The notes under the pieces were generated by a model that did no database searches, was not told the DNA's origin, and saw nothing but the letters and a program-made list of their open reading frames with translations. Made by a program: the position numbers and the translations under genes. From Escherichia coli (GTDB lineage: Bacteria > Pseudomonadota > Gammaproteobacteria > Enterobacterales > Enterobacteriaceae), in assembly GCF_011045215.1 (NCBI RefSeq), contig NZ_CP049201.1: a stretch of 64,000 nt of DNA; one strand, given 5' to 3'. This document shows positions 3,516 through 62,107 of the stretch, piece after piece. Position 1 is the stretch's first letter, and the number at the start of each line of letters is the position of its first letter.

Positions 3516-3521
3516 GATTAT

Positions 3522-3556
3522 AAGCGCATGTTATTGTTTAACATGCGCTTTTTTAT
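3522..3556 (+). terminator. Rho-independent terminator downstream of serX (island-supplied sequence)
   Basis: Inverted repeat aagcgcatgtt / aacatgcgctt followed by T-run. Confidence 0.6.
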
Positions 3557-3664
3557 TTTCCCTTTCAGACAGTATGCCATCGGGTATGCCATCTGAAACC
3601 GGTTTATATGCCCCGCGATCATATCTTATCGGACAATTTCCGATCTTTGAGCATACTGGCAAAG

Positions 3665-4507
3665 CTATACTGCCAGCATATCAGGATAGTGTTTTGCGAT
3701 AATATCATTCAGTCTGTCAACCAGTTCTGGTTTTCTGAACGTGATATGCGCGGAGCCCTTCTTAAAGTATCTGATGCTGAACATCTCATCTTCATAGCTC
3801 TCTTTACCCTGAACAGACTGAATGTGATCATCCAGACGAAGGGTGATGTTTCCCCGGTTGTCGGGGATTGGTTTACCGCTGAACAGGTGCAACATTCTTT
3901 CCAGATCGGCGAGTCGATCTGCCTGTTGCCCGGTGATAAGGTGAAATCCCCACCGGTCCCACCTCACCAGGTTGTTGACGATAATTTTACTGCCAAATTT
4001 GCAGGGGCAATTGGTTTTGTAATTCCAGTTCAATCCTCTGAAGACGTTGATCACCCCTCGCTCAAACACCTCATCCTTATTCTGGTGCAGTTGTTCAAAT
4101 GTGCTCAGAATGTTCGCTTCGCTGATTTCCGGAAAATTATCGTACTCCAGTGACCGGTACCATGTATCACGGGCCTGCGTATCCATTAATGACAGCATCC
4201 CGGAACGTTGCATCAGGTCACGCCAGATTTCGCGATCAAGATTCCGGGTAATGGCTTTCATTGCTGTTTCGGGTTTCTCCATCAGCCAGCAACCGCAGCG
4301 AAAATCCTGTTTCATGGCCCAGTCCGGGGCAGTTTTACCTCCGATGCTTTCCGTCAGCACCGAGATTTCAGCCAGTTGTCGGATAAGTGTGTCGATTTGC
4401 AACAGTGTACTCTTTCGTACAGCCAGAATGTGGCGAATGCTGGTTGAGCAGATAACGTCCGTATGCCCGTTGACCACTTCCGGACGGGAGATTGTGATAT
4501 CTGACAT
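3665..4507 (-). CDS. Hypothetical protein, first island gene next to tRNA (possibly DUF4942-like)
   Basis: 280-aa ORF; occupies the position after the cbtA/yeeW block typical of CP4-like islands; family assignment from memory only. Confidence 0.5.
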   Translation of the reverse strand: MSDITISRPEVVNGHTDVICSTSIRHILAVRKSTLLQIDTLIRQLAEISVLTESIGGKTAPDWAMKQDFRCGCWLMEKPETAMKAITRNLDREIWRDLMQRSGMLSLMDTQARDTWYRSLEYDNFPEISEANILSTFEQLHQNKDEVFERGVINVFRGLNWNYKTNCPCKFGSKIIVNNLVRWDRWGFHLITGQQADRLADLERMLHLFSGKPIPDNRGNITLRLDDHIQSVQGKESYEDEMFSIRYFKKGSAHITFRKPELVDRLNDIIAKHYPDMLAV

Positions 4508-4591
4508 AATCGATATTCCTTTTTGCAGATAAATGAAAACGCCAGCCCTGTTCAGGCTGGCGTCAGAGGAATGAAGTCTGGTGAGTGAGCT

Positions 4592-4789
4592 TCACCGGTT
4601 CTGGTGCAGAAGCTGCAGATGACGCAGGGTACGGACATCCTCCCGGGCCTGTTCGATACAGGGCAACAGTGCTGCTGAATCCGTTTTATCCTCATCGTTG
4701 TCAAAGATAATTCCCGATCCGCAGTCGATATTGTCCTGCAGCCACGCAATCAGAATATCCAGCGCTGTTTCCGTGGTTAATGATTTCAT
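4592..4789 (-). CDS. Small hypothetical protein (65 aa from MKSLTTETALD...)
   Basis: Short ORF between DUF gene and yeeW-like gene, same strand. Confidence 0.4.
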   Translation of the reverse strand: MKSLTTETALDILIAWLQDNIDCGSGIIFDNDEDKTDSAALLPCIEQAREDVRTLRHLQLLHQNR

Positions 4790-4800
4790 GTTGTTTCTGG

Positions 4801-5289
4801 TTACCAGTCGAAAGTGGGTAAACCCGGCAGGCATTCAGCGCTGGCATCCAGATGAATGAGACTGACGCCATAACGTCGGGTAAGTGTGACAACCAGACGA
4901 CGGAACGTTTTTGACAGGCCCAGGCGCTTAAGCCGCAGAACCGGGTATGACCACGCATCGGTACGTAACAGATATCCGCTACCTGTGAAATGAATCCATT
5001 CTGATTCGCCGGTGTCATTCGTCTGATGTGACAGCGAGTACAGCCAGGCGTTGTCCTTTTCCGTGATATGTGCGGTACTGCAGCGTATGCCGGTAAGGGC
5101 AGCAAATGGTGGCGTGCAGTCTGCTGAGGTCCGGTCAGATTCATCAACAACACGAAGGGAGTAGCCGTTATCGCAGACCATGTTAATCAGTTCAGCGAGC
5201 TCAATACCATCAACGTCAACGACAATGCGCCCCATGTTCAGTGCCTGCACGTTAATGCTGTCGGCTTCCAGCGTCAGGGCCAGTTTCAT
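4801..5289 (-). CDS. YeeW-like protein (gene downstream of cbtA in CP4-44-type modules)
   Basis: 162-aa ORF overlapping the cbtA stop by 4 nt; position-based assignment. Confidence 0.55.
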   Translation of the reverse strand: MKLALTLEADSINVQALNMGRIVVDVDGIELAELINMVCDNGYSLRVVDESDRTSADCTPPFAALTGIRCSTAHITEKDNAWLYSLSHQTNDTGESEWIHFTGSGYLLRTDAWSYPVLRLKRLGLSKTFRRLVVTLTRRYGVSLIHLDASAECLPGLPTFDW

Positions 5290-5663
5290 TGTTTCGCCCC
5301 CGGATGTTTACCCAGGGTAATGTTATTTACCGTTCTGTAGTTGTCGCGTGTCATCAGGCCGGTTGCCCGGCGTGCCCGGAGGATATCAATACTGTTTATT
5401 AACTGAGAACGGGTACAGGCGCTGAATCCCGGCTGGTCGGTACGCACCAGTGCGTATTTTTCAACGAGAAAGTTCACCGCATTGCACAGTGAAATGCCTG
5501 CCTCAATATGCTGCTCAATCACACGTTCATCAGCGAACGGTGTGTCATTCAGTGTGAGACCGTAATGCTGGTCCAGCAGTCGGGTGAGCAGTGTCTGCCA
5601 GATGGTGACGGGAGACGGGCAGCGCGATGCCTCCCGTACGTGTGTGTCAGGTAATGTTTTCAT
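5286..5663 (-). CDS. cbtA: CbtA/YeeV-family toxin (cytoskeleton-inhibiting type IV TA toxin)
   Basis: Product from MKTLPDTHVREASRCPSPVTIWQTLLTRLLDQHYGLTLNDTPFADER... strongly resembles YeeV/YkfI/YpjF; directly downstream of cbeA. Confidence 0.85.
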   Translation of the reverse strand: MKTLPDTHVREASRCPSPVTIWQTLLTRLLDQHYGLTLNDTPFADERVIEQHIEAGISLCNAVNFLVEKYALVRTDQPGFSACTRSQLINSIDILRARRATGLMTRDNYRTVNNITLGKHPGAKQ

Positions 5664-5709
5664 CTTAAGTTCTCTGTAACTGGTAGTGCTAAAGGTGAGA
5701 TATTCGGGG

Positions 5710-6084
5710 TTATGAGGTGGTTGCGGGTGCCAGTGTCGAATAAACAGCCATATAAACGTAACCACAGCTGCCGAGGGTGTCGGCTTCGCAGGTCAGCCCT
5801 CTGGCATACAGCGTGACGGTATGCTGATGGCGGGGATTCAGTTCACCGCTGGTGAGCATGAGTTCCAGTTGTTTCATCAGCAGCGGAAAGGCCTGGTCCA
5901 GATGGTACGCATCCGCGTCGCTGAACCGGCCTCTGATACCGGCGCGGTCTGCAAGGTAATGCAACCGGTTACCCTCCTGCACCAGACGTGCTCCGAAACA
6001 AGGTGTCACGGTACAGGGCAGTCCCCACCAGGGGCGGCCGCGATTGTCGTCGGGATGAGTTGTCTCATGGAGTGTGTCTGACAC
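5710..6084 (-). CDS. cbeA: CbeA/YeeU-family antitoxin
   Basis: 124-aa ORF MSDTL...RPWWGLPCTVTPCFGARLVQEGNRLHYLADRAGIRG... matches YeeU/YafW/YfjZ family. Confidence 0.85.
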   Translation of the reverse strand: MSDTLHETTHPDDNRGRPWWGLPCTVTPCFGARLVQEGNRLHYLADRAGIRGRFSDADAYHLDQAFPLLMKQLELMLTSGELNPRHQHTVTLYARGLTCEADTLGSCGYVYMAVYSTLAPATTS

Positions 6085-6158
6085 AATAAAATCCTCACAA
6101 AAAATCAGTTAAGAATGGTCCGGTGGCAGCGATAATTCTGCTCATCATTTCTCCTGAC

Positions 6159-6380
6159 TCAGTTCAGAGTGACGCTCATCAGCCGGACATACGGGCCAAA
6201 ACTGTCCTTACGGCGTTCTGCAAACACGGCCAGCACACCGGGAATATCCTGCACTTCACGACCGGTATACGCCTCAGCACTGCCGTGCCAGCGGTATTTG
6301 CCGGTACAGAACGGAAAAAGACGGGATGCAGGATGTTGTTGGTGAATACGCATGGCTTCACCACGGGTGATAATTTTCAT
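6159..6380 (-). CDS. yeeT: YeeT-like DUF987 protein
   Basis: 73-aa ORF MKIITRGEAMRIHQQHPASRLFPFCTGKYRWHGSAEAYTGREVQD... near-identical to recalled YeeT. Confidence 0.85.
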   Translation of the reverse strand: MKIITRGEAMRIHQQHPASRLFPFCTGKYRWHGSAEAYTGREVQDIPGVLAVFAERRKDSFGPYVRLMSVTLN

Positions 6381-6448
6381 GGTGGGATACCTCTGAAGAC
6401 AGAAGATAAAAGTGAAAACAGGTGTGATGTGGTTGTGACGGTGACGGG

Positions 6449-6940
6449 TTAAAGCAGACCGTGTTCCGCAAAGGAGAAAACCTGGTTGCCTCCGACTATC
6501 AGATGGTCCGGCACCCGGATGTCCACCAGGGCCAGCGCCTGTACCAGACGTTCGGTGATAAGCCGGTCTGCCTTACTGGGTGTGACTTCACCGGACGGAT
6601 GATTGTGTGCCAGCACCACGGCTGCGGCATTGTGATACAGGGCGCGTTTAATCACTTCCCGGGGATGGACTTCCGTGCGGTTGATAGTGCCGGTGAAGAG
6701 GGTTTCACCGGCAATCAGCTGATTCTGGTTATTCAGATACAGCACCCGGAATTCTTCACGCTCCAGTCCCGCCATGTTCAGAATCAGCCATTCCCGTGCC
6801 GCATGCGTGGAGGTGAAGGCCACGCCGGGTTCATGAAGATGGCGGTCCAGGGTTTTCAGGGCCCGCTGAATGAGACTGCGCTCGCCGGGCGTCATCTCTC
6901 CGGGCAGAAAGGAAAGCTGTTGCATTGCCCCTGCCTCCAT
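6449..6940 (-). CDS. RadC-like JAB-domain protein (YeeS/YfjY/YkfG family)
   Basis: HNHPSG JAB/MPN metalloprotease-like motif; true start possibly the internal ATG 15 nt downstream (MQQLSFLPGEM...). Confidence 0.85.
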   Translation of the reverse strand: MEAGAMQQLSFLPGEMTPGERSLIQRALKTLDRHLHEPGVAFTSTHAAREWLILNMAGLEREEFRVLYLNNQNQLIAGETLFTGTINRTEVHPREVIKRALYHNAAAVVLAHNHPSGEVTPSKADRLITERLVQALALVDIRVPDHLIVGGNQVFSFAEHGLL

Positions 6941-7426
6941 TCAGTCGATGATGCGCATAATGGCGCTGCATTCCGGATGTTGCAGGGCGTAATCCCGCAA
7001 CCGATAATAATGGACCGTCATGGCATAACACTCCGTACGACAGGCATGATGACTGTACGTCATCAGACAGGCGGCAATGCCGGCGGCTTCCGGACTCATT
7101 TCAGCGCGGTTACCGTTCATGGCATTGAACAGTACCCATGTTTCGTCATCATCGTCATCCGGTTCGGGTGCCATAAATGCCCCGCCGTTGTTCAGGGTGT
7201 ACAGATTCCAGATACCACCGCAGTAGTCTTCGCACAGACGGTCCATCCAGCCGAAGACACGGGGTTCCAGGGTCACCCACTGTGGAATGAGGCCAAAGTG
7301 CTGCGGCCAGAAGCTGATGCGCTGTTCATCAGGGACGGGAGTGGCAACCAACTGAGACTGGTTATTCCCTGATGCAGTAGTTACGGAAACAGAAGGTGTG
7401 GTGGAGCTATGCGAAAAGGTTGTCAT
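6941..7426 (-). CDS. Antirestriction protein (KlcA/ArdB-like; YfjX/YafX family)
   Basis: 161-aa ORF with acidic DDDDDE patch; family placement between DUF932 and radC-like genes. Confidence 0.75.
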   Translation of the reverse strand: MTTFSHSSTTPSVSVTTASGNNQSQLVATPVPDEQRISFWPQHFGLIPQWVTLEPRVFGWMDRLCEDYCGGIWNLYTLNNGGAFMAPEPDDDDDETWVLFNAMNGNRAEMSPEAAGIAACLMTYSHHACRTECYAMTVHYYRLRDYALQHPECSAIMRIID

Positions 7427-7517
7427 GAGATGATTCCTTATAAAAAGTAAATGAATGGAAGAATGCCTGGGGATTGGTACAGACGTGAGTCAGGGCTGCA
7501 CTTTCAGGGAAACAGCA

Positions 7518-8336
7518 TTAGCGCATGCTCTCCAGCAGCGTTTCTGCCATCACCCACAATGCGCGATTGAGCTTAATGTCCGTGTCGATGCTGTGAATGG
7601 CACGGGTGTGGATACGTTTTCCTTTAGCGCTGCGACCGGAAATTCCGCCTTTCAGCATATTCTCCTGAATGGTCTGATAAGCACTCCACAGGTCCTTACC
7701 GTAATCCTCCCTGCGTCGTGGTGTCAGAATGTCGGCGGTGGTGACGGGCTGATGTTCGTCACCATAACGGTAAGTCAGTGCCGCCTGTGCCAGCGCCTGG
7801 TGTGCCGGTGGCGGCAGAATCAGCGACTGCATGGCATCACGCTTTTCCTCAATCCGGTCAAAAACGCCCACCACTTCGTAAGCCCCTTCAATAACTTTCT
7901 CCACCACGTCTCCCCGGTGCGGAACACGCACCTCTCCCAGAGACTGACCGCAGACGCACCCGTTCTGACAAACGAATCTGAAGTAACCCGGCAGCATCTG
8001 GTAGCTGGAGGTACCGTCATGGGAATTGAGCAGGATGATTTCCGGGACATGCTGTCCGTTTATCTCTCCGGCCCGCCGCAGACGCAGCATGTGTTTGGTA
8101 TACCCCCGGCGGCCCGGGTCACGTACGCGGGTCTGGCAGGCGAAGAAGGGCTGAAAGCCCTCCCGCTGCAGACTTTCCAGCACGGTGATGGTGGGGATAT
8201 ACGTATAGCGTTCACTGCGGGAGGTATGCCGGTCTTCCCCAAAAATACCGGGTACATAGTGCATCAGCTCTTCATGTGTCAGCGGACGGTCACGGCGTAT
8301 CTGGTTCGCATAACCAAAACGACTTGCTAATCGCAT
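7518..8336 (-). CDS. DUF932-family protein (YfjQ-like)
   Basis: 272-aa ORF; conserved island-module gene upstream of the antirestriction gene. Confidence 0.7.
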   Translation of the reverse strand: MRLASRFGYANQIRRDRPLTHEELMHYVPGIFGEDRHTSRSERYTYIPTITVLESLQREGFQPFFACQTRVRDPGRRGYTKHMLRLRRAGEINGQHVPEIILLNSHDGTSSYQMLPGYFRFVCQNGCVCGQSLGEVRVPHRGDVVEKVIEGAYEVVGVFDRIEEKRDAMQSLILPPPAHQALAQAALTYRYGDEHQPVTTADILTPRRREDYGKDLWSAYQTIQENMLKGGISGRSAKGKRIHTRAIHSIDTDIKLNRALWVMAETLLESMR

Positions 8337-8610: not shown

Positions 8611-9066
8611 TCAGTTAACGTTTTTTCCGGAAACGGTAATTAGCAGTGGATGGTAGTCCTGGGGATCGAAAACCGATAACGGCAGACTGACACGATGGCC
8701 GTTACTTTCTTCAGTTGCTTTAATGATTTCGGTTGTGGCGACATTTTCCACGCACTCCGTTTCCAGAAATGCGTCTGTGGTTCGCGTGGCATCACTGTCA
8801 CCAAAGGCTTCCGTTTCCATTTTTCTGGTCACCAGCCTCTGACCATATTTGTCTTTGAGTTGCAGAGTGATGGTGAGGGGGCCAAATCCTTCTCCGTTTC
8901 CGCCATTATCCAGCCGGAACTGGTAAGCACAAATATTTCCCGGGAGCCATATCGTATCTGTATTGCGTATACTGATGTAACGTTGATCCTGTGCCCGGAG
9001 TGGGGCAGACCACGTTAACCCCAGAATGACGCCGGTAATAATGCAGGTTTTGAACAGGTGAATCAT
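8611..9066 (-). CDS. Hypothetical secreted protein (signal peptide)
   Basis: 151-aa ORF with N-terminal hydrophobic signal MIHLFKTCIITGVILGLTWSAPLRA; strong GGAG-type RBS region upstream. Confidence 0.55.
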   Translation of the reverse strand: MIHLFKTCIITGVILGLTWSAPLRAQDQRYISIRNTDTIWLPGNICAYQFRLDNGGNGEGFGPLTITLQLKDKYGQRLVTRKMETEAFGDSDATRTTDAFLETECVENVATTEIIKATEESNGHRVSLPLSVFDPQDYHPLLITVSGKNVN

Positions 9067-9141: not shown

Positions 9142-11664
9142 TTATGCCGGTAACTCCGGGGGTAATGCTTCTTCCAGCCGGTTAACCATATTGCCGAGAT
9201 GGGATGCATCATATTCCATGACGGGGCGTTGCCTGATGATACTGACCACCAGTGGTTTGATTAACATATTGGTCGCGGCCCGTTGTTGTATACCGGCGGC
9301 GAAAATGATCTCCAGAGCATTCTGATCGATAACACGGGCCAGATTCGCGTTCAGATTTTCTGTTTCATGTCCGGTCAGCAGGAAACTGCCGGCAAGCCAT
9401 GTCACCTGTTCCTGAATCATTGCCAGAATTTTGACGCGATCTTCTTCAACCAGCGCTCCGGCAATTTTTCCTGATACAGCGGAGGCAATCATTCCCCCCA
9501 GAACACCGCCAACCACACGCCCTGTCAGTGCACCAAATGGTCCCAGTGGACTGAACAGTATCCCGCCCGCCACTGACCCGACAGCTCCACCTGCCACACC
9601 GGAAGATGCCACGGCAAGATTCCTGATGAACTGCGTACCGGAGATCCGTCCCCGCAACATTTTGATCATGTCAGGGCCGGTTGTGACAGCTACCAGTGCC
9701 AGAGATGTCACCAGCGTACCCTTCATCACTTTGTTCAGGGCACTGATATTTCCTGCACCGGTCCCCTTCTGAAGAGCCAGTCGGACAGTCGGGCTGGCAG
9801 TCGAAAAATCAATGTGCTTCAGCATACCCTGAACAACACTGAGCCGGTGGAGTTGCTGGGTTGTGACGTAGACAGCCAGTGTGCGGGTGAAGGTTTTTCC
9901 TGCCTGGACAGCAGCTGTCTGCAGAGCAGCATCGCGATCGCCGGTGCTGAGCCAGAAGACCGATGCCGTCAGGGCAAAACTGATCCCTCCGGCCGCCAGA
10001 CTGACAACCGAACCCTCGGCAATATCATAAGTGACCGATTCGATGGTCCCGAACCGGGTGATATTACGGGCCTGAGTATAAGTCAGATGTCCCCGACGAA
10101 TCAGCCGGGACGCTTCTGCGGGATCGATTACACCGGGTACTTTACCTTCGCGGATCTTATTCCTCATGGTTTCAACAGCGCCGGCATACTGATCACGGGG
10201 GACTTCCAGTTGCATGGGGCCATTATTTCCCATGTAACGATACTGTCCGTTTTGTCCGTCGAATGCCGCACCGACGCTACGGGCTGCAGTTGAACAATAT
10301 TTCGTCTGGATTTCTGTTCCGCTGACCAGTCTGTCTGCTCCATTTCTGGCATTATTATCACCGAGGATCCGTGCGTTTTTCAGACGGATTCTGTCGACAA
10401 TATGGTTTCCCCGTTCAGCGGCAAACCCATGTCCCTGCCCTCCGGAAGCAAACATTTTCTCATTTGTACTCCAGGTTTCCGGCAGTTTCATGAGAATCAG
10501 ACCATTCGCCGTTGCATCGGAAATAAAACTGTTGTAGGGGCGTTCATAAATTTCCTGACACAGTGTTTCTGTTTCGCGACAAAGAGAGGAGCAGTACCAT
10601 TCCGGATCCGGCTTATGATTTTCCGGGGCATGATGTACTTCTGTCAGCCCGCAGGAGGCACAGACACGAAGCTCATCCACGTGATGGAATGATACAAAAC
10701 GGCGACCTTCTGAAAAGGGATACCAGTCACCGCCGTCCAGGCAACGATCGAGAAAATCGTCATTCGCTTCCGGTGATAAATTCAGGCGGTTCCGGAAGAG
10801 TGTTTTCAGTTCATCAGGTGTGAATGACAGGTTCTCTTTCAACTGTTCGTTAAACCCTGCCATGTTTCTTTCATACCAGGCATTGTTCAGTAACCAGTTT
10901 CCGTCTGCCAGTTCAAATTCCCTCAGCTCTCCCCGGGAAATCCGTTGAGAAATAAGCGTCAGCCAGATGCGCTCCGTCAGTGAGTCAGGAAGGCTGTAAT
11001 CGTTTTGCAAACTGGTCAGCCACGATTTACTGTTGAGCACCGGTTGTTCTTCCAGTGTCTGGCTGATGGCACAGGTCAGTTTTTTCAGCGCCTGGATTTG
11101 GCTGGCCGCCCATAGCAGCGTCACTAATGCAGCCAGCCAGTACAACAACCCGCCCCACCACATCAGTGACGGTGAAATATCGTACTGTAACGCGATCAAT
11201 GGTGCGCATGCAGAACAAGCCATAAGGAAAAAGGCAGTATAAAAACAGCAGTAATATCCGTTAATTTCCTTGCTGATATCTTCTGGTGTGATCCCGTTCT
11301 GCTGAATGTTTTTGATCTGCAGGGGAACAGCCAGCAGACCACCGGCGAGAGCGGTGGTCAGAATAAATTTCACGGAGTCAAAGGTGTGAGACTCCAGCGC
11401 AATATGTTTACCATCAAGTCCCCACATGAAGCTGATGATCATTCCGGCAATCGTCAGAAATACGCCTGCCAGCCAGCGAATATGGAACAACCGGGTTATG
11501 CGTTCGGTGATATAGCCAGCCAGTAAGGCCGGGCCGAACAGACACAGCAATATGAGCCCTGCCAGCGCAGAAGCCGTGCTGATTAATGCTCTGAACAAAA
11601 GGCGAAGAATGGCAAATCCTGCGATCAGCAGGATCAGCGCGCCGACTATCTGTAACATAGTCAC
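9142..11664 (-). CDS. Large inner-membrane protein (YeeR-like by position), 840 aa
   Basis: N-terminal ~200 aa with multiple hydrophobic helices, central cysteine-containing soluble region, C-terminal glycine-rich hydrophobic segment; immediately downstream of the Ag43 gene. Confidence 0.6.
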   Translation of the reverse strand: MTMLQIVGALILLIAGFAILRLLFRALISTASALAGLILLCLFGPALLAGYITERITRLFHIRWLAGVFLTIAGMIISFMWGLDGKHIALESHTFDSVKFILTTALAGGLLAVPLQIKNIQQNGITPEDISKEINGYYCCFYTAFFLMACSACAPLIALQYDISPSLMWWGGLLYWLAALVTLLWAASQIQALKKLTCAISQTLEEQPVLNSKSWLTSLQNDYSLPDSLTERIWLTLISQRISRGELREFELADGNWLLNNAWYERNMAGFNEQLKENLSFTPDELKTLFRNRLNLSPEANDDFLDRCLDGGDWYPFSEGRRFVSFHHVDELRVCASCGLTEVHHAPENHKPDPEWYCSSLCRETETLCQEIYERPYNSFISDATANGLILMKLPETWSTNEKMFASGGQGHGFAAERGNHIVDRIRLKNARILGDNNARNGADRLVSGTEIQTKYCSTAARSVGAAFDGQNGQYRYMGNNGPMQLEVPRDQYAGAVETMRNKIREGKVPGVIDPAEASRLIRRGHLTYTQARNITRFGTIESVTYDIAEGSVVSLAAGGISFALTASVFWLSTGDRDAALQTAAVQAGKTFTRTLAVYVTTQQLHRLSVVQGMLKHIDFSTASPTVRLALQKGTGAGNISALNKVMKGTLVTSLALVAVTTGPDMIKMLRGRISGTQFIRNLAVASSGVAGGAVGSVAGGILFSPLGPFGALTGRVVGGVLGGMIASAVSGKIAGALVEEDRVKILAMIQEQVTWLAGSFLLTGHETENLNANLARVIDQNALEIIFAAGIQQRAATNMLIKPLVVSIIRQRPVMEYDASHLGNMVNRLEEALPPELPA

Positions 11665-14845: not shown

Positions 14846-14881
14846 GATCGATACTAACGATCGATACCTGTTTTATCGATC
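14846..14881 (-). promoter_or_regulatory. Three clustered GATC sites: agn43-type Dam/OxyR phase-variation switch
   Basis: aaacGATCGATactaacGATCGATacctgttttatcGATCGtttta about 220 bp upstream of the flu start; GATC at 14846, 14859, 14878. Confidence 0.75.
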
Positions 14882-47108: not shown

Positions 47109-47117
47109 GAAACTTTC

Positions 47118-51598: not shown

Positions 51599-52372
51599 AT
51601 GAATAAAGCTGAAGTTCTGGAAAAAGGTTATTGGATTGAAATCAGTATTGATGCATATGCACAAAAAGTTAAGGGTATATCACGAGATGACTACCCACCA
51701 TTACGTTGTATCTCATGCGAGAAACCTGTCCATGATAGCGGATTAGTCACTCCCAATCCTGATTATAGCCCCAGATTCTCTCATTCCGCTTCACCAGAAA
51801 ATAAAGAGTTCTGTCCCCTAAGCGCAAGATCTCAACGTTTTTCTGGTTTTTCAGGTAATGAACGCTCTGCTTCAGCAGAAATTGCAGTATCTCGCCGAAA
51901 TCAATTCATGCAATTTGATAACCTCTATCGGGCCTGGGTTGTTTGTAGAGCATTAAGGGGAGGTGAAGGGAAGCTTGATCAAAAATCATTCATTCGGATG
52001 GTCAGGATCGCGGATAGTTTTGGGATCTGGCATTATAGCTATATGCCTGACTGGGGAATCCCTCTTATGCTAATGTTAATGGATAACCACCCGACACCAA
52101 ATGGTAAATCAACTTTTTTCTATTCATTAAAAAAAGAACGTGTTCGAAAAGGTGTAAAATGGCAAGATCTAAATGTCAGACTTGAAGCACATTGGGTAAA
52201 TGGTGGTAACCGCATAGTTCCAAATAAAGATAAAAAAGCTTCATTCTTGCTCACCATTCCATTTGCTAAGTCTGTTATTGATGAAATACTGAGTAAAGAA
52301 AATCTGTCATGGTGCTCAAAAAACTCTCTACCAATATTGCATTCTTTTAGCATTAGAGCTTTAACCACTTAA
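51599..52372 (+). CDS. Hypothetical protein (257 aa), AT-rich
   Basis: ORF co-oriented with 50896..51291; no motif recognised. Confidence 0.5.
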   Translation: MNKAEVLEKGYWIEISIDAYAQKVKGISRDDYPPLRCISCEKPVHDSGLVTPNPDYSPRFSHSASPENKEFCPLSARSQRFSGFSGNERSASAEIAVSRRNQFMQFDNLYRAWVVCRALRGGEGKLDQKSFIRMVRIADSFGIWHYSYMPDWGIPLMLMLMDNHPTPNGKSTFFYSLKKERVRKGVKWQDLNVRLEAHWVNGGNRIVPNKDKKASFLLTIPFAKSVIDEILSKENLSWCSKNSLPILHSFSIRALTT

Positions 52373-52662
52373 TTGAGGAAGTAATGATACAAGCTACAGT
52401 ATTGGTGACGAATCTATAGACAAGGAGATAAAAACCAAATATCAGAATTATTTTTGATAGTGCTGGTAAAGAAGCGGTGTTTGATATCAGCATGTTTATC
52501 GGAAAAAAGCTTACCTGGAGCTTTGAAAAATTGCAAAGCAGGGCCTGACAATGAAGGCCCTAATACTGTACTAAATGTTAACTCAGTACCAAATCACAAG
52601 GAAAAGTATTTTTTCTGGTAAGATTCTATATACATAATAAATCACCTTATAGTTACAATAGG

Positions 52663-53166
52663 TCAAAAACCGCTGTAGCCAAAGTTACGCTGGCCTGATG
52701 CTTTAGTGTCGAGCTTCGTCAAATAATCCAGACGTACCAATAAGCGCTGGTACTGCTCAGGGAAATCAGGATCGTTAATATCCAGGATGTAACGCCCATT
52801 AGTAGGGAAATGAACTAATCCCTGGTGATCTTCCAGTTCCAACCCTAAGGCACTGTACCAGGCTCCGGTAATTAACCCTCTCAGGGTGTCAGAGCGCTCA
52901 TAGTCTCCCAGGTGGTAATAGGCGTCTTTGTTAAACAACAGGCAGACGTGATAATGACATTTAAAGGACTGCGTATATTCTTTCGCCCAGATAATACAAA
53001 CCGACGTTGCGTAGGTGCGTTTGCCTTGTTGTTTTTTACGGTGTTGATCTGCATTAATTTTCGCATTCAGCGAGTTACGGAAACGAGATATTTCTCCGGG
53101 GGTCAGGTTAGGAAAACAGGTAATGGTATCCCCGTTGTCAATCACAGGAGGGTAATGGAGATCCAC
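52663..53166 (-). CDS. YagK/YfjJ-family (inovirus Gp2-type) protein, short form
   Basis: CHYHVCLLFNKDAYYHLG resembles the conserved HYH-x-LF-x-x-DAY motif region of YfjJ-like proteins. Confidence 0.6.
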   Translation of the reverse strand: MDLHYPPVIDNGDTITCFPNLTPGEISRFRNSLNAKINADQHRKKQQGKRTYATSVCIIWAKEYTQSFKCHYHVCLLFNKDAYYHLGDYERSDTLRGLITGAWYSALGLELEDHQGLVHFPTNGRYILDINDPDFPEQYQRLLVRLDYLTKLDTKASGQRNFGYSGF

Positions 53167-53280
53167 CCGTATTGCTGTTATTCTGGAAGTATTTTTAATA
53201 TTCGTATTGATAGTTCTCAGAGATATATCACACTCTAGATATTTTAATTAAGTATCAGTTCGATATCGGCATATTGTACA

Positions 53281-53644
53281 CTACCTCTGGTAGATGATGA
53301 GATCAGATACAGGGATCAACTGACGGTGAGCGCAGTCCCCACATTTTATCCAGGGCTTACTGCATATTCCCAACAGCCATTCGTTAGCCAGGTAGACGAA
53401 TACCCTTTCCGCTGGTTTTGCTTTCCCATCGAAGGGCCCATACATCATCACGCCCGCGAAACAGTCGACAAAATAACGCAACTTTCTCATCCGTGGATAA
53501 TACGAAAACGCACTGCACAGGGCTCTGCGGTTTACGTCGCCATTCAATCCCATGAGCTTCAAGTAATGAGACCAGCCGGGTATTTTCTGCCCGCAGTACT
53601 GCTAGTTCATCGCTGTCAGATTTATAAACCATATGCGTTATCAC
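53281..53644 (-). pseudogene. Frameshifted 5' remnant of a larger gene
   Basis: Two overlapping minus-strand ORFs in different frames (53384..53644 and 53281..53562) that read like consecutive parts of one N-terminus; no continuation downstream. Confidence 0.4.
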
Positions 53645-53738
53645 TTGTACCTGTCTCCCGGCGGCACCACGACTGAAATTCGTGTGAAGGCAAATCCACG
53701 CGATAACTTACGATAGTTCGGACATAAGCCCCCATAAT

Positions 53739-54302
53739 TCAGTTATGTCGTGGTCGGCCGCGGTTACTTTTTTCGGGAAGCCTGCTACGCCCCAGAATAA
53801 TACCGTGTTCTTTCTGATCCTGTTTCGCCAGATAGCTAAGGGCGTAACGTAAGTCGTCTACCGCAGATTTATCACTATAGTGAATTACATGATCGATACG
53901 CACCGGGTATTTATCTTTAGCCCGGCACAGGTGAAAATAACCCTCCCCTTCCGTGATCCGCCTCCAGATATCTCCCAGTTGCCTGGATATCTGATAAGAG
54001 TTCTTGTGACGTTGTCCATCCAGATAGCCGATAAAATGAATATGAAGCCCTTTGTCTGGTGTATATTCCATTACCCAGTAATATCCCGCCAACATCGTCT
54101 GGGTTTCGCTAAGTAAGCGGTACATTTCCATACACATACTGTGCTTACAGGAAAGACCAAAACTGGGCGTGTCTTTCCTGTAAGCAAAATCAATTCTGAA
54201 AGGTAACAGTTTAGAAAAACGTTGAAACAGACCTTCCATGTGTTCATTCACATCTTTCAGAATCGCGAAATTCATTTCGTAATTGGGATTGGCATTATAC
54301 AT
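53739..54302 (-). CDS. YagK/YfjJ-family (inovirus Gp2-type) protein
   Basis: LPFRIDFAYRKD ... GLHIHFIGYLDG pattern as in YfjJ-like island proteins. Confidence 0.6.
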   Translation of the reverse strand: MYNANPNYEMNFAILKDVNEHMEGLFQRFSKLLPFRIDFAYRKDTPSFGLSCKHSMCMEMYRLLSETQTMLAGYYWVMEYTPDKGLHIHFIGYLDGQRHKNSYQISRQLGDIWRRITEGEGYFHLCRAKDKYPVRIDHVIHYSDKSAVDDLRYALSYLAKQDQKEHGIILGRSRLPEKSNRGRPRHN

Positions 54303-55240: not shown

Positions 55241-56692
55241 TCAGAGGTCAAAGTTAGGTGCGACACACAACGTTTTTCCCTCAATAACCGGTACAACTCT
55301 GTTTTGTTCATACAGTAAATCCAGTAACCAGTTGATTTTATCCTTTTTCCGGAAACGGTTCGGGCCACGCTGTAAAATGTCATTTTTTTTCATACAGAGG
55401 ATCCCCTTCTCAATGCAATAGCTTTTTATCCAGTTGAAAAGTTCAAGCTCCTCTGGAATGAGTCGCACAGGTACGGTCAGGGCGGAGTTGTCAAAAGTTA
55501 ACGGATTAGACAACCGCACATACTCATTACCGTACCATATTGCTAATTCTCTCGCCATTTCTGCAGTGTAAGGGGAAATCTCCCCCTCTTCACCGCTCGA
55601 ATGGTAAATAAGTCCTGCCAGTCTTGCCATATACTCTGCATTTTTAGCAGCATATTCCCGGCAATGTCTTAAAGGCCCCAATCCCCCCAGCTTCGATTCC
55701 ACATCATTGTAATAATCCGTCCAGATTCTGGCAGCCTGAGGAGAAAAGTGAAGGCAACGTCGTTCACCACTCATCGCCAGACTTTCATCAATAAGCTCAT
55801 TGATCCTCTCTTCAAACAAATCCTGATACTGTGATGAATAATTATCTCCGGTTATTATCCTTGTCCCCTGCGTTGATGTTGGTTGACACATCAAAAACCT
55901 TGCATGATGTCCTGACGTTTTCACAAGTTCTTTTTTTCGCGTACAAAAACCTTTGTGGTAAACATCAGGCTGAATCATCACCGATATCGTCAGTCTTGGC
56001 TCCTTCAAATTAATTCCGGGAGATGATTTCCTGTCGATGAAAAGAGAACCTCCATCCCACAAAGTGTTAATAATTCCCAGTTTACTCATGGCCCGGCTGT
56101 CAAAAATTACCCCCCCTTCACTGGATACAAGAGCAAAAGAGCGATTGCTATCAGAGTAATATTTTAACATTCCCTCTATCGTTGTCTCATTAAAAATTGT
56201 TCGACGTATCTGCGGCGGAACAGGAGATTTATTCAGATGCGTTTCAAGCTCTGATTCTGTTGCCTTGTAATCTTTACCGGCACGAATCTCTTTATGAAAT
56301 TTTGATTCCAGCGCTTTTTGTTTTTGCTCCCATATTTCCTTTTCTGTACTGTAATTCTCAACCAGTTTCGCGTATTCTTCCGCCAGGGCTTCATCCCTGA
56401 GATAAAATGCTTTCATAAACACTTTATCCACGGTCGTTTTCCTTTCACCGGAATCAGCCAGAATCAGAGAGTAAAGATTAACAGGCCCATGTAAATTTCC
56501 AGGTCTGCACACGTCAATCTGATTCTGACAGGCAATTGAGATCGCTGTTAATGCGGATGTTGCCACCATAGCCAAAGGTGCCTGTGTATTTTTTTGAGTT
56601 TCAATTATTGCATTTCTCACCAGCGGTGGTAGTGCATATATCGGATAAGGATTTTCTGGTGCAAGTAAGCACATAAAAGCCTCTCTTTTCAT
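55241..56692 (-). CDS. DUF3987-family protein (YfjI-like), usual partner of AlpA in P4-type islands
   Basis: 483-aa ORF downstream of alpA; start codon uncertain. Confidence 0.65.
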   Translation of the reverse strand: MKREAFMCLLAPENPYPIYALPPLVRNAIIETQKNTQAPLAMVATSALTAISIACQNQIDVCRPGNLHGPVNLYSLILADSGERKTTVDKVFMKAFYLRDEALAEEYAKLVENYSTEKEIWEQKQKALESKFHKEIRAGKDYKATESELETHLNKSPVPPQIRRTIFNETTIEGMLKYYSDSNRSFALVSSEGGVIFDSRAMSKLGIINTLWDGGSLFIDRKSSPGINLKEPRLTISVMIQPDVYHKGFCTRKKELVKTSGHHARFLMCQPTSTQGTRIITGDNYSSQYQDLFEERINELIDESLAMSGERRCLHFSPQAARIWTDYYNDVESKLGGLGPLRHCREYAAKNAEYMARLAGLIYHSSGEEGEISPYTAEMARELAIWYGNEYVRLSNPLTFDNSALTVPVRLIPEELELFNWIKSYCIEKGILCMKKNDILQRGPNRFRKKDKINWLLDLLYEQNRVVPVIEGKTLCVAPNFDL

Positions 56693-57316: not shown

Positions 57317-57625
57317 TTATCTGCTCATGGTCATATCTGAAGAAAGCGTATGTCGCACTTCGTCATTAACACCTTTGACTGCTGATCTGGCAGGTACAGT
57401 ATGTAAAGTAAGCCATTCGTCAATAGCTGATGAACGCCAGCCCACAGAACCACTACCAAGACGTACCGGCCTGGGGAAGGTTGCATCGTAGTATTTCGAT
57501 AACGGATTCATTTTTTCGTAAATTGTCGAACGAGATATACCTAACAATTGGCTCAGTTCAGGCATCCGTAAGATGCGTGAAGGAGTCCAGCAGTATCCGG
57601 ATTGATCTGGCATTTTATCCCCCAT
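57317..57625 (-). CDS. alpA: AlpA-family phage-type transcriptional regulator (excisionase-like)
   Basis: LRMPELSQLLGISRSTIYEKMNPLSKYYDATFPRPVRLGSGSVGWRSSAIDEWL matches the AlpA HTH core; start uncertain (ORF extends to 57697). Confidence 0.75.
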   Translation of the reverse strand: MGDKMPDQSGYCWTPSRILRMPELSQLLGISRSTIYEKMNPLSKYYDATFPRPVRLGSGSVGWRSSAIDEWLTLHTVPARSAVKGVNDEVRHTLSSDMTMSR

Positions 57626-57836
57626 AGTGTGGTGAACTGTCGTTACAGTTTGTATTCCCCGGGTAAATTTGTCTGCGTAAAAAAATGGGCTGAGCAAAAA
57701 GACAATAAATAATTAAAAATCAATACGATAGAAAACAACAGCATTATTGTTATTTTACTTTCTCCTTATCACTGTCGATTCTCATTATCATTCATTGGTA
57801 AAAAAACAGCAAAAGAGGCCCTGGTAATGACTCCAG

Positions 57837-58229
57837 TCAGTAGTACAGTGTTTTCGATAAATGAACCAATGGCTTTTCGTGAATTTCCAGGGAGCGTGAA
57901 AAGCAAATCGTTTTCCGGGCTGGTCGTTTGATGTGAGTACGAAGTGTCAGATTGTTGCGCTCAATGCGCCGGGTAAATATCTTGCCGACAAGATGCTTAT
58001 CCTGTGGCATTTCTCTGGTATAACTGCTCCGGTTGTCTCTGGTTATCATGCCTGTGGAGAATGGCTTCAGGAGTTCCGGCAACTCACGACATGTTTCATC
58101 AGTGCGAGGACCAAAAGTGTAAGCCAGCACACCTCCAGATTTGGTGTTATACGCATACCAGTGCCACTGCTGACGAGCTTTGTTTTCGACAAAACTCCAT
58201 TGTTCATCAAGTTCGCAGATAAGCGCCAC
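57837..58229 (-). mobile_element. IS1-family transposase (InsB-like) remnant, diverged and truncated
   Basis: ICELDEQW...YAY...RIERNNLTLR resembles the IS1 InsB core; no intact InsA or terminal repeats identified. Confidence 0.45.
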
Positions 58230-58725: not shown

Positions 58726-60543
58726 ATGTATAATTTTATCACTATAATGTATGATGTCTTTTCATGTTTTGGTGTTCTGGCTAAAAACCAGAATACCCGT
58801 GACATCCGAAATATTAAAAATTTTTCCTCACATCAACATTCACTGGGCGACATGTTTGATGAATTAATAAACATTATTGATAAAGAACAAGTATTGAGTA
58901 CAGAACAACGAAAAGTTATATTTAGGAGATATGAAGATCTCTATGTTAAGCTAATGCACTATTCTGTTTTTACAGACAAAACACATCAAATAATAAAACA
59001 AAAATATTTTAATGACATTGTACCAATGATTCTCGCACTCGACATCAGGAACACATATCGCCCGGATAATGAGATGGCATTTTACTATCATATTCATTCT
59101 TTTCTCACTCAGATACCGGATAATGAGGATGATATATATCATGCTGCAAGGACATATCTGCGAAATTACATTAAGTTATGTTTATCCGGATACACACCAG
59201 CGAATGCGCATTTCAAAGATATCTTTGATGGCGTATATGAATTCATTCGTAATATTCGCAAAAACAGTACACCAGGAAAAACAAAACTTACCGCAACTAT
59301 CAACACATGCAAAGAAACCTGTAAACATCTGCTTTATTTAAGTAATGAAGACAAGGAAAAAATAATTTCTGACTTAGATAAAATTCAAGTTGCATGTTAT
59401 TATCTCACCATATTACTGGCTTTCGAAAGACGAACTTCATTAACAAGCGCCCTGGCAACTTTATATAAAATGCTGATAAGCGAAAGAGAAGTTTCAGAAT
59501 ATGAATGCCAGTTATTATATTTAACCAACCCAATAGATGTAATGAATATACTGAACAAACACATATATTACTTTCCTAATGAGAACTCACCATTTTATAC
59601 ACTGAAAATTGACAGTGCATTATCGTGGGAGGCCATTGACGCAATACGAGACTATAGTATTTCTGATATTTATCTTTATCCTGAACAAAAAACAATAAAT
59701 TGTGTCGTTGAGATTGAAAACATTGTCTTTGGCGGTTACATTTATACATTGAACAACGGCGTCACATTACAAAACATAGAAAACACTTTAAAAGATTCTT
59801 CATGCCATTATGTCTTAAATGGCTATACAGAATTTGTTAACTGTTTGATACAACTTACTTCAGGAAAGACTGAAAGTGTTCATCGCACCATCAATAAACT
59901 GAACTATGAGAAATTACCTTTTGGATTTATCATTGCCGCGTTTGCTATACTAAAGATAGCATTTAAAATAAAATTCAGTAAAAATCATGTAAATATCCGA
60001 GCATTATTAAATGACATCAATTATTTTATGACTTATCAGGGCGAGTCCATTAACCTTATTTCACTGGATCACGAATACCCAGAGTCCTGTCTTCAAAATG
60101 ACACAAACACATATTTATTAGGAAGAGTAATATTTCTGTATAACTCAATGATTTATAAGTTCATAAACTGTCAGGAACATGAAACCAATAACATTCACTC
60201 AGCTATGATAAATAACCTATTACAGGAAGTTGATATAGCCCTTGGTAAAATAAATAACATTATAGACAGCAGAAATATATCAACCCCCCATGAACTAGCA
60301 AATATTCTTACCCGCGAAAAAATACTTACAACACGGGAAAAAAAAGGAAACCTGATAAGCCTGTTTGATGGATTCACTTTATTCCATTGTGTTGGAATGA
60401 TAACCTTTCTTATCCATTATCTCAGAACACCTGAAGAAAAAGTTGAAAATATATTTATGTTATATGGTGCAGATAAAAACAATAAACTACGCAGAAGACT
60501 GATTTATGACGCACTAGGAATAATTCAGTCTCAGCAGGAGTGA
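58726..60543 (+). CDS. Large hypothetical protein (605 aa), very AT-rich, no recognised domain
   Basis: Long uninterrupted ORF with Asn/Ile/Tyr/Lys-rich composition; convergent with the integrase gene. Confidence 0.6.
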   Translation: MYNFITIMYDVFSCFGVLAKNQNTRDIRNIKNFSSHQHSLGDMFDELINIIDKEQVLSTEQRKVIFRRYEDLYVKLMHYSVFTDKTHQIIKQKYFNDIVPMILALDIRNTYRPDNEMAFYYHIHSFLTQIPDNEDDIYHAARTYLRNYIKLCLSGYTPANAHFKDIFDGVYEFIRNIRKNSTPGKTKLTATINTCKETCKHLLYLSNEDKEKIISDLDKIQVACYYLTILLAFERRTSLTSALATLYKMLISEREVSEYECQLLYLTNPIDVMNILNKHIYYFPNENSPFYTLKIDSALSWEAIDAIRDYSISDIYLYPEQKTINCVVEIENIVFGGYIYTLNNGVTLQNIENTLKDSSCHYVLNGYTEFVNCLIQLTSGKTESVHRTINKLNYEKLPFGFIIAAFAILKIAFKIKFSKNHVNIRALLNDINYFMTYQGESINLISLDHEYPESCLQNDTNTYLLGRVIFLYNSMIYKFINCQEHETNNIHSAMINNLLQEVDIALGKINNIIDSRNISTPHELANILTREKILTTREKKGNLISLFDGFTLFHCVGMITFLIHYLRTPEEKVENIFMLYGADKNNKLRRRLIYDALGIIQSQQE

Positions 60544-60564
60544 AACGTTAAAACAGGCAAATTG

Positions 60565-60610
60565 TTTTTTATAAACAGGAGATTGTTGAGTAATCCCCTG
60601 TTTATAAAAA
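60565..60610. terminator. Bidirectional terminator between the 605-aa gene and int
   Basis: Perfect inverted repeat tttataaacagg ... cctgtttataaa with 17-nt spacer flanked by T/A runs. Confidence 0.6.
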
Positions 60611-60730
60611 TACGCTTTCCTGACGATCTGATAATTATCAGCTCAATACATTTGACATAAAAGCGGTTCCTTAATTACTACTGCCACGATCACATATCAA
60701 ATCATGATCGTACAATATACATTTTCACTA

Positions 60731-61933
60731 TTATTTATTCACAATTTGAGACATCACATAATCCGCCCATGCCTGCATCATCGGTACACGCTGCTCCAGT
60801 AGATCAGTGCGATGATATGCCGCCTCAACCTTATTTTTCAGCGTATGAGCGAGCGCCCTTTCCGCCAGATCCCGCGAATACCCCTGTTCACTACACCAGT
60901 CCCTGAATGTTGAGCGAAAACCATGTGCCGTGGCAACTCGCCCCGGAATGTCACTGACGGCTTTCTTTTTACGCAGAAAACTTGTCAACACCATATCGGA
61001 AAGGATCTGCTGCTTTCTGGGTGAAGGGAACACCAGTTCATCATGCAGGCCACGTATATTTTCCAGAATGTAAATAGCCTGCCGGGATAAAGGAACACGA
61101 TGCTGTAGCCTAGCTTTCATTCTTTCTGCAGGTATAGTCCATACCCGCTTATGAAAATCAATTTCAGCCCAGCGCATTCCCCTGGCTTCGCCCGAGCGAG
61201 TTGCTGTAAGTATCACCATTAATAACAGTGCGCGGGTAACATTATAAGGTTCATCACTATACACACTGGTCGCCACAAAAAGCGGTAACTGCCTCCAGGG
61301 CATTGCGGGTTGGTGTTCATCACGTCCTCTTGTCTGCTGAGGAAGCAAATGGTCAACCACATCAACAGGATTTGCCACACAAAAACCGTGCGCCCATCCC
61401 CACTGCATAACAACATGAATGCGCTGTTTAACCCGGCTTGCCGTTTCTGACAAGGTTAACCAGACTGGACGCAATGTTTCTGCCACGTCCGCAGCCGTAA
61501 TCGAATCCAGCGTTTTTGCTCCCAGTTGAGGAAACGCGTAATTCTCAAGCGTCGATAACCACTGCCTTACATGCTTTGGATTTTCCCATCCAGGAGACAG
61601 TTCTGCATGTACACGCCTGGCTGCATCGGCAAATGTTGGGATAACGACTTTCTCAGATTCAGCCTTTTTAATCTCCAGAGGATCATCACCTGCAGCAAGT
61701 TGCTCTCGCATTATCCGGGCAGTACGTGCAGCTTCAGCAATACTGACCTCTGGGTAAGTTCCCAATCCAGCATTACGTCTTTTTTGTGTCACCGGACTTA
61801 CATAACGAAAAACCCATTTCCCCCGCCCCTTTACTGAAGAAGGATGAAGGGTCAGTCCGGTAATTCCCCCATGGGGCAATGGTTTGTCATCAGGTTTGAT
61901 ATGTCTTGCTTTCGTATCCGTCAATACTGCCAT
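60731..61933 (-). CDS. P4-type tyrosine integrase
   Basis: 400-aa ORF with catalytic R...HxxR...Y core (ATAHGFRSTFRDW; C-terminal tyrosine region) adjacent to the tRNA-3'-end repeat. Confidence 0.9.
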   Translation of the reverse strand: MAVLTDTKARHIKPDDKPLPHGGITGLTLHPSSVKGRGKWVFRYVSPVTQKRRNAGLGTYPEVSIAEAARTARIMREQLAAGDDPLEIKKAESEKVVIPTFADAARRVHAELSPGWENPKHVRQWLSTLENYAFPQLGAKTLDSITAADVAETLRPVWLTLSETASRVKQRIHVVMQWGWAHGFCVANPVDVVDHLLPQQTRGRDEHQPAMPWRQLPLFVATSVYSDEPYNVTRALLLMVILTATRSGEARGMRWAEIDFHKRVWTIPAERMKARLQHRVPLSRQAIYILENIRGLHDELVFPSPRKQQILSDMVLTSFLRKKKAVSDIPGRVATAHGFRSTFRDWCSEQGYSRDLAERALAHTLKNKVEAAYHRTDLLEQRVPMMQAWADYVMSQIVNK

Positions 61934-62090
61934 ACGCTAATTCCCGTCACTCTGGTATGCCATCCAGTATGCCATTAGTCTCTCGCTTCACTAAGAATAC
62001 ATTAGATAATATCGGACAACAAAAAGTGTAATACATTGTTTATAATGAAATTATATAACACCCCTGGATTAAGTCAGATTTATTTCAGGC

Positions 62091-62107
62091 GGTCCCCCTC
62101 ACCGCCA
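62091..62107. repeat. Direct repeat of the serX 3' end (island distal att site)
   Basis: ggtccccctcaccgcca; ccccctcaccgcca matches serX 3' end at 3502..3515. Confidence 0.8.

Follow-up and report, generated by a model that had tools for sequence, protein, structure and literature searches.

A mosaic genomic island at serX in Escherichia coli, built on the plan of the serX/serW island family

OI-43 and OI-48 of Escherichia coli EDL933 are flanked by perfect 14-bp repeats, TGGCGGTGAGGGGG, equal to the last 14 bp of serW/serX and identical to the repeats of the Shigella SRL pathogenicity island (PAI); their P4-family integrase shares 99% identity with that of SRL, and recombination between the repeats excises both islands completely in approximately 1e-3 to 1e-4 of cells (Bielaszewska et al. 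2011, PMC3064760). Precise deletion of the SRL PAI needs int, its sites being serX and serW, and islands at serX (PAI-serX) are listed for CFT073, UTI89 and RS218, among others (review PMC7545054). Here we analyze a stretch of 64,000 nucleotides from E. coli (NCBI RefSeq assembly GCF_011045215.1, contig NZ_CP049201.1), referred to as the window, whose positions 3516-62107 are, in our judgment with high probability, one site-specific integrative island of the serX/serW family that includes the SRL PAI, OI-43 and OI-48. The island is an ordinary member of this known family, with a new mix of familiar cargo.

With the family, the island in the window shares all three of its marks, that is, the site, the repeat and the integrase. 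The published repeat is the reverse complement of the one found in the window, CCCCCTCACCGCCA, and OI-43/OI-48, which are tellurite resistance and adherence islands of the SpLE1 type in O157:H7, use the serW/serX site with this identical 14-bp repeat. The likeness extends to the tRNA end, where the combination of an Ag43/Cah adhesin with a CbtA/YeeU-type module is also seen in a related O157 serW island. The cargo is different: the window has no ter, ure or iha genes and carries instead a restriction-modification operon with DarTG, an Ail/Lom protein, an arginine deiminase (ADI) operon and a cdiBCAI locus for contact-dependent inhibition (CDI). OI-43 and OI-48 are also larger, approximately 87 kb as against 58.6 kb. 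The SRL PAI of Shigella flexneri (AF326777), for which excision has been demonstrated by experiment, resembles the window in its serX (also serW) target, its 14-bp repeats and, according to the literature, a closely related P4-family integrase (PMC3064760, PMC7545054), whereas its cargo consists of multidrug resistance (SRL) and ferric dicitrate uptake. The PAI-serX islands of CFT073, UTI89 and RS218 likewise lie at serX and carry Ag43, but their cargo is made up of S fimbriae and salmochelin (PMC7545054), neither of which is in the window.

Boundaries of the island and the empty site

The single tRNA call in the window is tRNA-Ser(GGA), which is base-for-base identical to serX of K-12 and to serW of O157:H7. 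The island begins right after this intact gene, as had been proposed in an earlier annotation by a model that saw only the letters of the window and its open reading frames (ORFs), hereafter the sequence-only reading. Comparing the tRNA region with the distal end yields no exact match longer than the 14-bp CCCCCTCACCGCCA, exact copies of which occur in the window at the two island ends only. A 15-mer from the tRNA end, allowing up to 2 mismatches, likewise finds just these two sites (0.18 expected), and a 20-mer with up to 3 mismatches matches the tRNA itself and nothing else. The repeat is therefore 14 bp long and not 17, a repeat of 17-20 bp finding no support; of the 14-17 bp direct repeat claimed by the sequence-only reading, the repeat and its lower length stand. 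The island thus delimited spans 58,592 bp. Two 14-mer copies with 2 mismatches, at 8868 (in irmA) and at 47229 (in cdiB), were considered as internal attachment (att) sites and rejected; both are coding and have no arm context, and we take them to be due to chance.

The flanks of the island, with the ghrA-ycdX-ycdY-ycdZ genes on the left and ycdU on the right, are those of K-12, where serX is unoccupied, the intervening DNA is absent and the tRNA is directly followed by TATTTAAAGAAGAGCTCGTACGAAAGTACGGGCTTTTTTTT, its native terminator. The sequence-only reading had described ycdU and serX as adjacent in K-12, which holds in so far as there is no island between them, but the two are separated by 735 bp of tandem repeats, comprising approximately 3 units of about 178 bp, each starting with the tRNA 3' end (NC_000913.3, 1,096,830-1,097,565). 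An empty site as such had been anticipated correctly, and K-12 is not alone in having one. Namely, querying with the 400 bp that end at the tRNA, fused to the 400 bp past the distal repeat, we found the exact empty-site junction contiguous in 10 further complete E. coli genomes, the neighbouring insertion sequence (IS) IS200C included; in one example, DA33137, it matches in one piece at 99% identity.

As side observations, the K-12 repeats supply 3 additional copies of the 14-bp att core and are annotated as the small RNA RtT in other genomes; in the window, repeats of this type are absent from the corresponding region (62827-63010). The IS200C copy lies outside the island, 8 bp past the attR core and between the island and the native serX terminator, which picks up again at 62827 and continues toward ycdU; an Rfam STnc490 leader is recognized within it (62691-62814). 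Its presence at the same spot in the 10 island-free genomes implies either that the insertion is older than the island or that the island was precisely lost there.

Integrase, attachment arms and proposed mechanism

The sequence-only reading had recognized that the distal end repeats the tRNA 3' end and has a P4-type integrase next to it, and this description proved accurate. The integrase has the domain composition of its type, with an N-terminal arm-binding domain (Arm-DNA-bind_3, aa 4-92), a middle domain (Phage_int_M, 101-191) and a C-terminal catalytic domain (Phage_integrase, 232-375); candidate catalytic motifs, picked by eye in the translation, are TRSGE, HGFRSTFRDW and ALAH...AAY. It is identical in 400 of 400 aa to the integrase of the serW island of O157:H7 FRIK804 and in 397 of 400 to that of the serX island of O157:H7 SS52, and no second integrase was found among the window ORFs examined.

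Both ends carry the same set of short motifs, GTATGCCATCnnGTATGCCAT followed after 35 nt by TATCGGACAA, in equal orientation, in register and ungapped, within surroundings that are otherwise unrelated; on the P arm, the set starts 22 nt upstream of the int start codon. The 9-mer GTATGCCAT occurs 5 times in the window as against 0.77 expected, and 4 of the 5 occurrences are the two arm doublets. In the FRIK804 serW island the attL-side set is kept with 1 substitution and the attR-side set is identical; the motifs are also kept in the serX island of strain 21AH126, and the GTATGCCAT doublet persists even in an island whose int region is merely 93.7% identical. What is more, the ends of serX and serW islands are conserved right up to the core and diverge in the host flank beyond it. 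Judging by these patterns in the DNA, the GTATGCCAT doublets are probably arm-type binding sites of the integrase, and TATCGGACAA is perhaps bound by an accessory protein. On the tRNA side, the native serX terminator gives way to an island-borne terminator hairpin 7 nt past the tRNA, which is conserved across islands at serX and serW.

These parts suggest the following mechanism. A circular form would carry attP, composed of the P arm, the core GGCGGT-CCCCCTCACCGCCA and the P' arm, which would recombine with the last 14 bp of the tRNA-Ser(GGA) gene by means of the island's P4-type tyrosine integrase, whose N-terminal arm-binding domain would probably read the GTATGCCAT doublets on both sides of the core. 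Integration would restore an intact tRNA, add the island-borne terminator, duplicate the 14-bp core at the ends and leave int at the end facing ycdU, transcribed inward. Excision would be the reversal of this process, probably helped by the AlpA-type protein encoded approximately 3.4 kb from int; the predicted junctions are GGCGGTCCCCCTCACCGCCA joined to GATTATAAGC for attP and AATCCCCCCCTCACCGCCA joined to TATTTAAA for the restored attB. Finally, two conserved backbone ends would bracket a swappable cargo, exchanged internally by recombination and IS activity, to which an IS1 remnant (57837-58229), an IS200 remnant (37043-37069) and the repeats at 36655-37042 may testify.

Relatives and competing explanations

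The serW island of FRIK804 (NZ_CP034384.1, approximately 1,095,500-1,152,700) shows the gene order of the window from tRNA to int and, beyond the identical integrase, has near-identical attL and attR arms, the hsdMS-darTG-hsdR-M48 operon and the cdiB-cdiC-cdiA-cdiI locus. It is unlike the window in lying at serW, between infA and clpA, in having type I Zorya in place of the DUF4222/ECs1377 module, in lacking a 9.4-kb segment with Ail/Lom, the orphan toxin and ADI, and in having cdiA and cdiB genes that the annotation marks as interrupted. The serX island of SS52 has, adjoining ycdU as here, a module of int, the 605-aa protein discussed below, an IS1 remnant, AlpA, YfjI and Gp2. A more distant parallel is CP4-6 of K-12, in which a tRNA gene is followed by a CbtA-type toxin-antitoxin pair, DUF987, RadC, antirestriction, DUF932 and GTPase genes, cargo and YagK, and the distal end is taken up by a P4-type integrase encoded on the opposite strand. 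However, CP4-6 targets thrW, uses intF, carries different cargo and is heavily disrupted by IS elements; it is an architectural analogue belonging to a separate element family. Since its layout, with intF distal, matches that of the window, the sequence-only reading was apt in likening the position of the integrase, distal to the intact tRNA, to CP4-6.

Prevalence was searched in 5426 complete E. coli genomes. The segment containing int and attR is present at a coverage of at least 80% in 1258 of them, so that occupancy is variable; 1041 records match it at a nucleotide identity of at least 99%, including O157, O26, O103 and Nissle 1917 (99.7% in the last). One att arm or both can be found in 1372 genomes, the median number of places per genome being 2. 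The first 25 kb of the window are common to 167 genomes at a coverage of at least 80%, at serX, whereas no complete genome searched contains at least 80% of the middle or of the right-hand 25-kb segment. In other words, the exact mosaic does not occur in this collection, and the genome that matches best varies from segment to segment. While the island as a whole has the GC content of the left flank (mean 49.3%), the values of 2-kb windows span 0.35 to 0.58 and family models reveal mixed classes of cargo, in keeping with the heterogeneity that had been noted. With the empty sites elsewhere and the integrase and repeat in place, the proposal of a mosaic genomic island of about 58.6 kb at serX is well borne out.

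What else could the locus be? That it is a decayed P4-like or PICI-like (phage-inducible chromosomal island) satellite, or a cryptic prophage, which accreted cargo and is moved by a helper phage, is unlikely but has some features on its side. Indeed, int, AlpA, the DUF3987/YfjI protein (scored as a DNA helicase) and Gp2/YagK resemble satellite and cryptic-prophage modules, and CP4-6, with its equivalent layout, is annotated as a cryptic prophage in K-12. Still, while the int/AlpA/DUF3987/Gp2 module is there, no morphogenesis or packaging genes were found, and specifically no capsid, packaging, Psu/Sid/Delta-like or cos-related genes among the ORFs, and 58.6 kb is far above the roughly 10-15 kb of known phage satellites. 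Such an account, moreover, says more about where the element came from than about what it does now, and it can be true of a site-specific integrative island as well. We regard as very unlikely a mobilisable element, be it an integrative and mobilisable element or the remnant of an integrative and conjugative element, that is conjugated by the machinery of a helper. Antirestriction, RadC/JAB and DUF932 proteins are encoded in the tRNA-side module, and genes of this kind typically occur in leading regions of conjugative elements, but no relaxase, coupling protein or type IV secretion gene appears in ORFs of at least 90 aa and no relaxase or type IV secretion gene in the annotation of close relatives, and no oriT was identified, no dedicated oriT search having been made.

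The heterogeneous GC content, the segments best matched in different genomes and the IS1 and IS200 remnants at some joints would also fit two or more elements that integrated serially at serX and were fused by the loss of internal att sites and of one integrase. We nevertheless consider a tandem composite of this kind highly improbable. Only one integrase is seen, and the internal cores have no arm context. Given that the full order from the tRNA side to the int side also occurs at serW in O157:H7, and that CP4-6 has an equivalent layout at thrW with a different integrase, the two ends are parts of one element type, and differences in cargo are accounted for by internal swaps, such as Zorya I in O157 against the ADI insert here. 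Lastly, the island could be imagined as ancestral chromosome lost by K-12, with the 14-bp repeat being a native post-serX copy of the tRNA end. Since each of the three repeats of about 178 bp past serX in K-12 opens with the tRNA 3' end, core copies can arise without integration. However, the DNA to the left of the distal core, ...TTTCAGGCGGT, is island DNA, having 5 C residues as against 7 in the K-12 repeat unit and being identical to the attR end of serW islands, so the K-12 repeats are rejected as the source of the distal repeat. With the integrase abutting this core, the patchy occupancy across E. coli and the same element at serW in other strains, a deletion in K-12 is refuted and has next to no probability.

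That said, several points weigh against our preferred reading, a site-specific integrative island of the serX/serW family. No consensus site for integration host factor lies near the att arms, the 4 matches in the window equalling chance expectation. The attP junction, queried as a 400-bp chimera, has no contiguous match in the 5426 genomes, and its exact 35-mer occurs neither in IMG/VR nor in metagenome contigs, although such an absence tells nothing about a circular form that would be rare. The IS1 remnant between alpA and the 605-aa gene and int might affect regulation, although it is found in the SS52 serX island too. No transfer genes that would account for movement between cells are present among the ORFs. 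In addition, the link to the SRL PAI rests on the 99% figure that the literature gives for the OI-43/OI-48 integrase, and it is from its parts that we infer that the copy in the window would still be mobile.

Gene content and significance

The island has two conserved ends: on the tRNA side DUF4942, CbtA/YeeU, RadC, antirestriction, DUF932, YeeR, Ag43 and GTPase genes, and on the int side Gp2/YagK, YfjI, AlpA, the 605-aa protein and int (Table 1). The tRNA-side end is a module of the CP4-6/CP4-44 type, an equivalent set being present in CP4-6; names within 3665-8336 were transferred from two RefSeq-annotated loci at 92-97% nucleotide identity, RadC and Ag43 being backed by NCBIfam. The Ag43 leader contains 3 GATC sites (14846, 14859 and 14878), which we take to be the layout of the Dam/OxyR phase-variation switch of flu, and is spanned by an Rfam IS102 RNA match (14647-14883).

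On the int side, the Gp2/YagK proteins show a weak match to replication initiators, and the remnant between them is a short N-terminal piece of a TOTE conflict-system primase-domain protein, whose full-length form (>2.3 kb) occupies the equivalent position in SS52. The module at 49449-54302 is found in 13 genomes at a coverage of at least 80%, and PADLOC matched no known defence system among the uncharacterised genes at 48.9-60.5 kb. The stretch between cdiB and the Gp2 gene (48858-53738), occupied by type I Zorya in the serW island of O157:H7, may be a defence slot with variable content. The 605-aa protein has no match in Pfam, NCBIfam, PADLOC or PHROGs and 33 matching clusters among 1.8 billion representatives; its AlphaFold2 model (predicted local distance difference test score, pLDDT, 83.9) retrieved, by Foldseek, uncharacterised homologues only, with no informative match. 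Its gene is divergent from the alpA-yfjI-Gp2 genes in the window, and it is likewise divergent from AlpA-DUF3987-YagK in two further contig families, of which one has a P4-type integrase close by. The gene is kept beside such modules in several Enterobacterales and adjoins int in both O157:H7 serX/serW islands examined. One may speculate that AlpA, DUF3987, the Gp2-type initiators and the 605-aa protein make up a working excision-and-replication unit, the last supplying a new backbone function, e.g. as a maintenance regulator or as an anti-phage or exclusion factor, with the arm motif set (GTATGCCAT twice, 35 nt, TATCGGACAA) as a code tying the integrase and its partners to attP; we find this doubtful and offer it as a conjecture.

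The cargo belongs to the classes that the sequence-only reading had named, i.e. adhesin (Ag43, by NCBIfam), toxin-antitoxin (CbtA/YeeU by annotation transfer, DarTG by NCBIfam), defence (type I restriction-modification, by family models), CDI (cdiBCAI and an orphan toxin) and metabolism (the ADI operon). The DarT/DarG pair is nested between hsdS and hsdR of the type I operon, with an M48 peptidase after hsdR, an arrangement shared by the serX island of 21AH126 and the serW island of O157. The CDI locus consists of CdiB, a CdiA with haemagglutinin repeats and a VENN-delimited toxin, the adjacent CdiI and, in addition, an HlyC-type CdiC; the C-terminal toxin (last 106 aa) matches PDB 5T86 chain A (E = 3e-67), with toxin and CdiI aligned almost over their full length. 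The annotation of the O157 and A19 relatives gives both cdiA and cdiB as interrupted; in the window the two genes are intact. A complete ADI operon is placed between the main cdiI and the orphan cdiA-CT module; the 77-aa ORF overlapping the orphan toxin gene is, from its position, its putative immunity partner. The operon is 99.4-100% identical to those of strains A19 and mip270_05, occurs at 99-100% identity in 348 complete genomes and also in approximately 300 plasmid records, and often adjoins CDI genes, as in A19 and mip270_05 (there inside a ter island), while strain 08-00022 has the Ail/Lom, orphan toxin and cdiBCAI neighbourhood without it. At the joint between the ADI operon and cdiI we observed 2-3 copies of a 40-50-bp repeat (…GCGCCCGAAAACGCGTCAATATGAGTTCGCCGGAATATTAC; 36655-37042), followed at 37043-37069 by a fragment of 27 nt that matches the right end of IS200C (62800-62826) exactly; together these are probably an IS scar at a cargo junction.

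Table 1. Features of the window, with strand and evidence; family models at 49449-54302 are those of NCBIfam and PHROGs
Feature	Position	Strand	Evidence or remark
serX = tRNA-Ser(GGA), intact	3428-3515	+	ARAGORN; Rfam tRNA
attL core / left direct repeat, last 14 nt of serX	3502-3515	+	CCCCCTCACCGCCA
Island-borne terminator hairpin, 12-bp stem and T run	3522-3550	+	terminator scan; inverted repeat
Candidate arm-type site set, attL side (P' arm)	3572-3637	+	GTATGCCATCggGTATGCCAT, 35 nt, TATCGGACAA
DUF4942	3665-4507	-	annotation transfer
DUF5983	4801-5289	-	annotation transfer
CbtA-family toxin	5286-5660	-	annotation transfer
YeeU-family antitoxin	5710-6084	-	annotation transfer
RadC/JAB	6449-6940	-	annotation transfer; NCBIfam confirms RadC
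Antirestriction protein	6941-7426	-	annotation transfer
DUF932	7518-8336	-	annotation transfer
IrmA-family protein	8611-9066	-	annotation transfer
YeeR	9142-11664	-	annotation transfer
Ag43/Cah autotransporter adhesin	11779-14703	-	NCBIfam auto_Ag43, 1973 bits
YeeP/YkfA-type GTPase	15000-15911	-	annotation transfer; weak PADLOC LeoBC/LeoA GTPase matches
Hypothetical protein, 314 aa	16088-17032	-	annotation transfer
hsdM	18310-20748	+	NCBIfam, above curated cut-off
hsdS	20742-22088	+	NCBIfam weak match, 34 bits vs cut-off 662
darT	22101-22757	+	NCBIfam toxin_DarT, above curated cut-off
darG	22742-23821	+	NCBIfam antitoxin_DarG, above curated cut-off
hsdR	23840-26935	+	NCBIfam, above curated cut-off
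M48 metallopeptidase	26935-27651	+	end of type I restriction operon
Ail/Lom/OmpX-family outer membrane protein	28259-28816	-	NCBIfam
Putative immunity ORF, 77 aa, overlaps orphan toxin	29082-29315	-	position
Orphan CdiA C-terminal toxin fragment with PT-VENN domain	29312-30208	-	Pfam
arcA	31049-32269	+	NCBIfam
arcC	32250-33191	+	NCBIfam
Ornithine carbamoyltransferase	33276-34280	+	NCBIfam
YfcC-family antiporter	34328-35731	+	NCBIfam
ArgR-family repressor	within 35659-36291	+	NCBIfam
cdiI	37111-37485	-	PDB 5T86 chain I, E = 8e-77
cdiA, 3024 aa	37491-46565	-	Pfam Fil_haemagg_2 and PT-VENN
cdiC, HlyC-type acyltransferase	46581-47108	-	Pfam HlyC
cdiB	47118-48857	-	annotation of relatives
DUF4222	49449-49640	+	family models
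77-aa ORF	49693-49926	-	
ECs1377-family protein	50013-50636	-	family models
Unknown, 131 aa, predicted membrane protein	50896-51291	+	
Unknown, 257 aa	51599-52372	+	
Gp2/YagK-YfjJ-type protein	52663-53166	-	family models
Truncated TOTE primase remnant	53281-53644	-	family models
Gp2/YagK-YfjJ-type protein	53739-54302	-	family models
YfjI/DUF3987 helicase-like protein	55241-56692	-	PHROGs DNA helicase family
AlpA-type excisionase/regulator	within 57317-57697	-	PHROGs excisionase family
IS1 transposase remnant	57837-58229	-	NCBIfam IS1
605-aa all-alpha orphan protein, ~35% GC	58726-60543	+	conserved synteny
P4-type tyrosine integrase, 400 aa, intact, reads inward from attR	60731-61933	-	Pfam
Candidate arm-type site set, attR side (P arm)	61955-62020	+	GTATGCCATCcaGTATGCCAT, 35 nt, TATCGGACAA
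attR core / right direct repeat	62094-62107	+	CCCCCTCACCGCCA, then native serX downstream sequence TATTTAAA
IS200C, outside island	62116-62826 (approx.)	-	K-12 and DA33137 alignment; Rfam STnc490; annotation
ycdU	63011-63997	-	right flank

Islands at serX/serW with such an integrase and the 14-bp repeat have been described since approximately 2001 and are found in roughly one quarter of complete E. coli genomes, and the value of the present one is accordingly modest. The mildly new points are the candidate arm-type sites of the serX integrase and a conserved 605-aa backbone protein without known fold or function. For the family as a whole, the island is a clean case of one conserved integrative chassis exchanging its cargo: here, the chassis unites defence (restriction-modification and DarTG), competition (cdiBCAI and the orphan toxin), adhesion (Ag43) and metabolism (ADI), while the near-identical chassis at serW in O157:H7 has Zorya.

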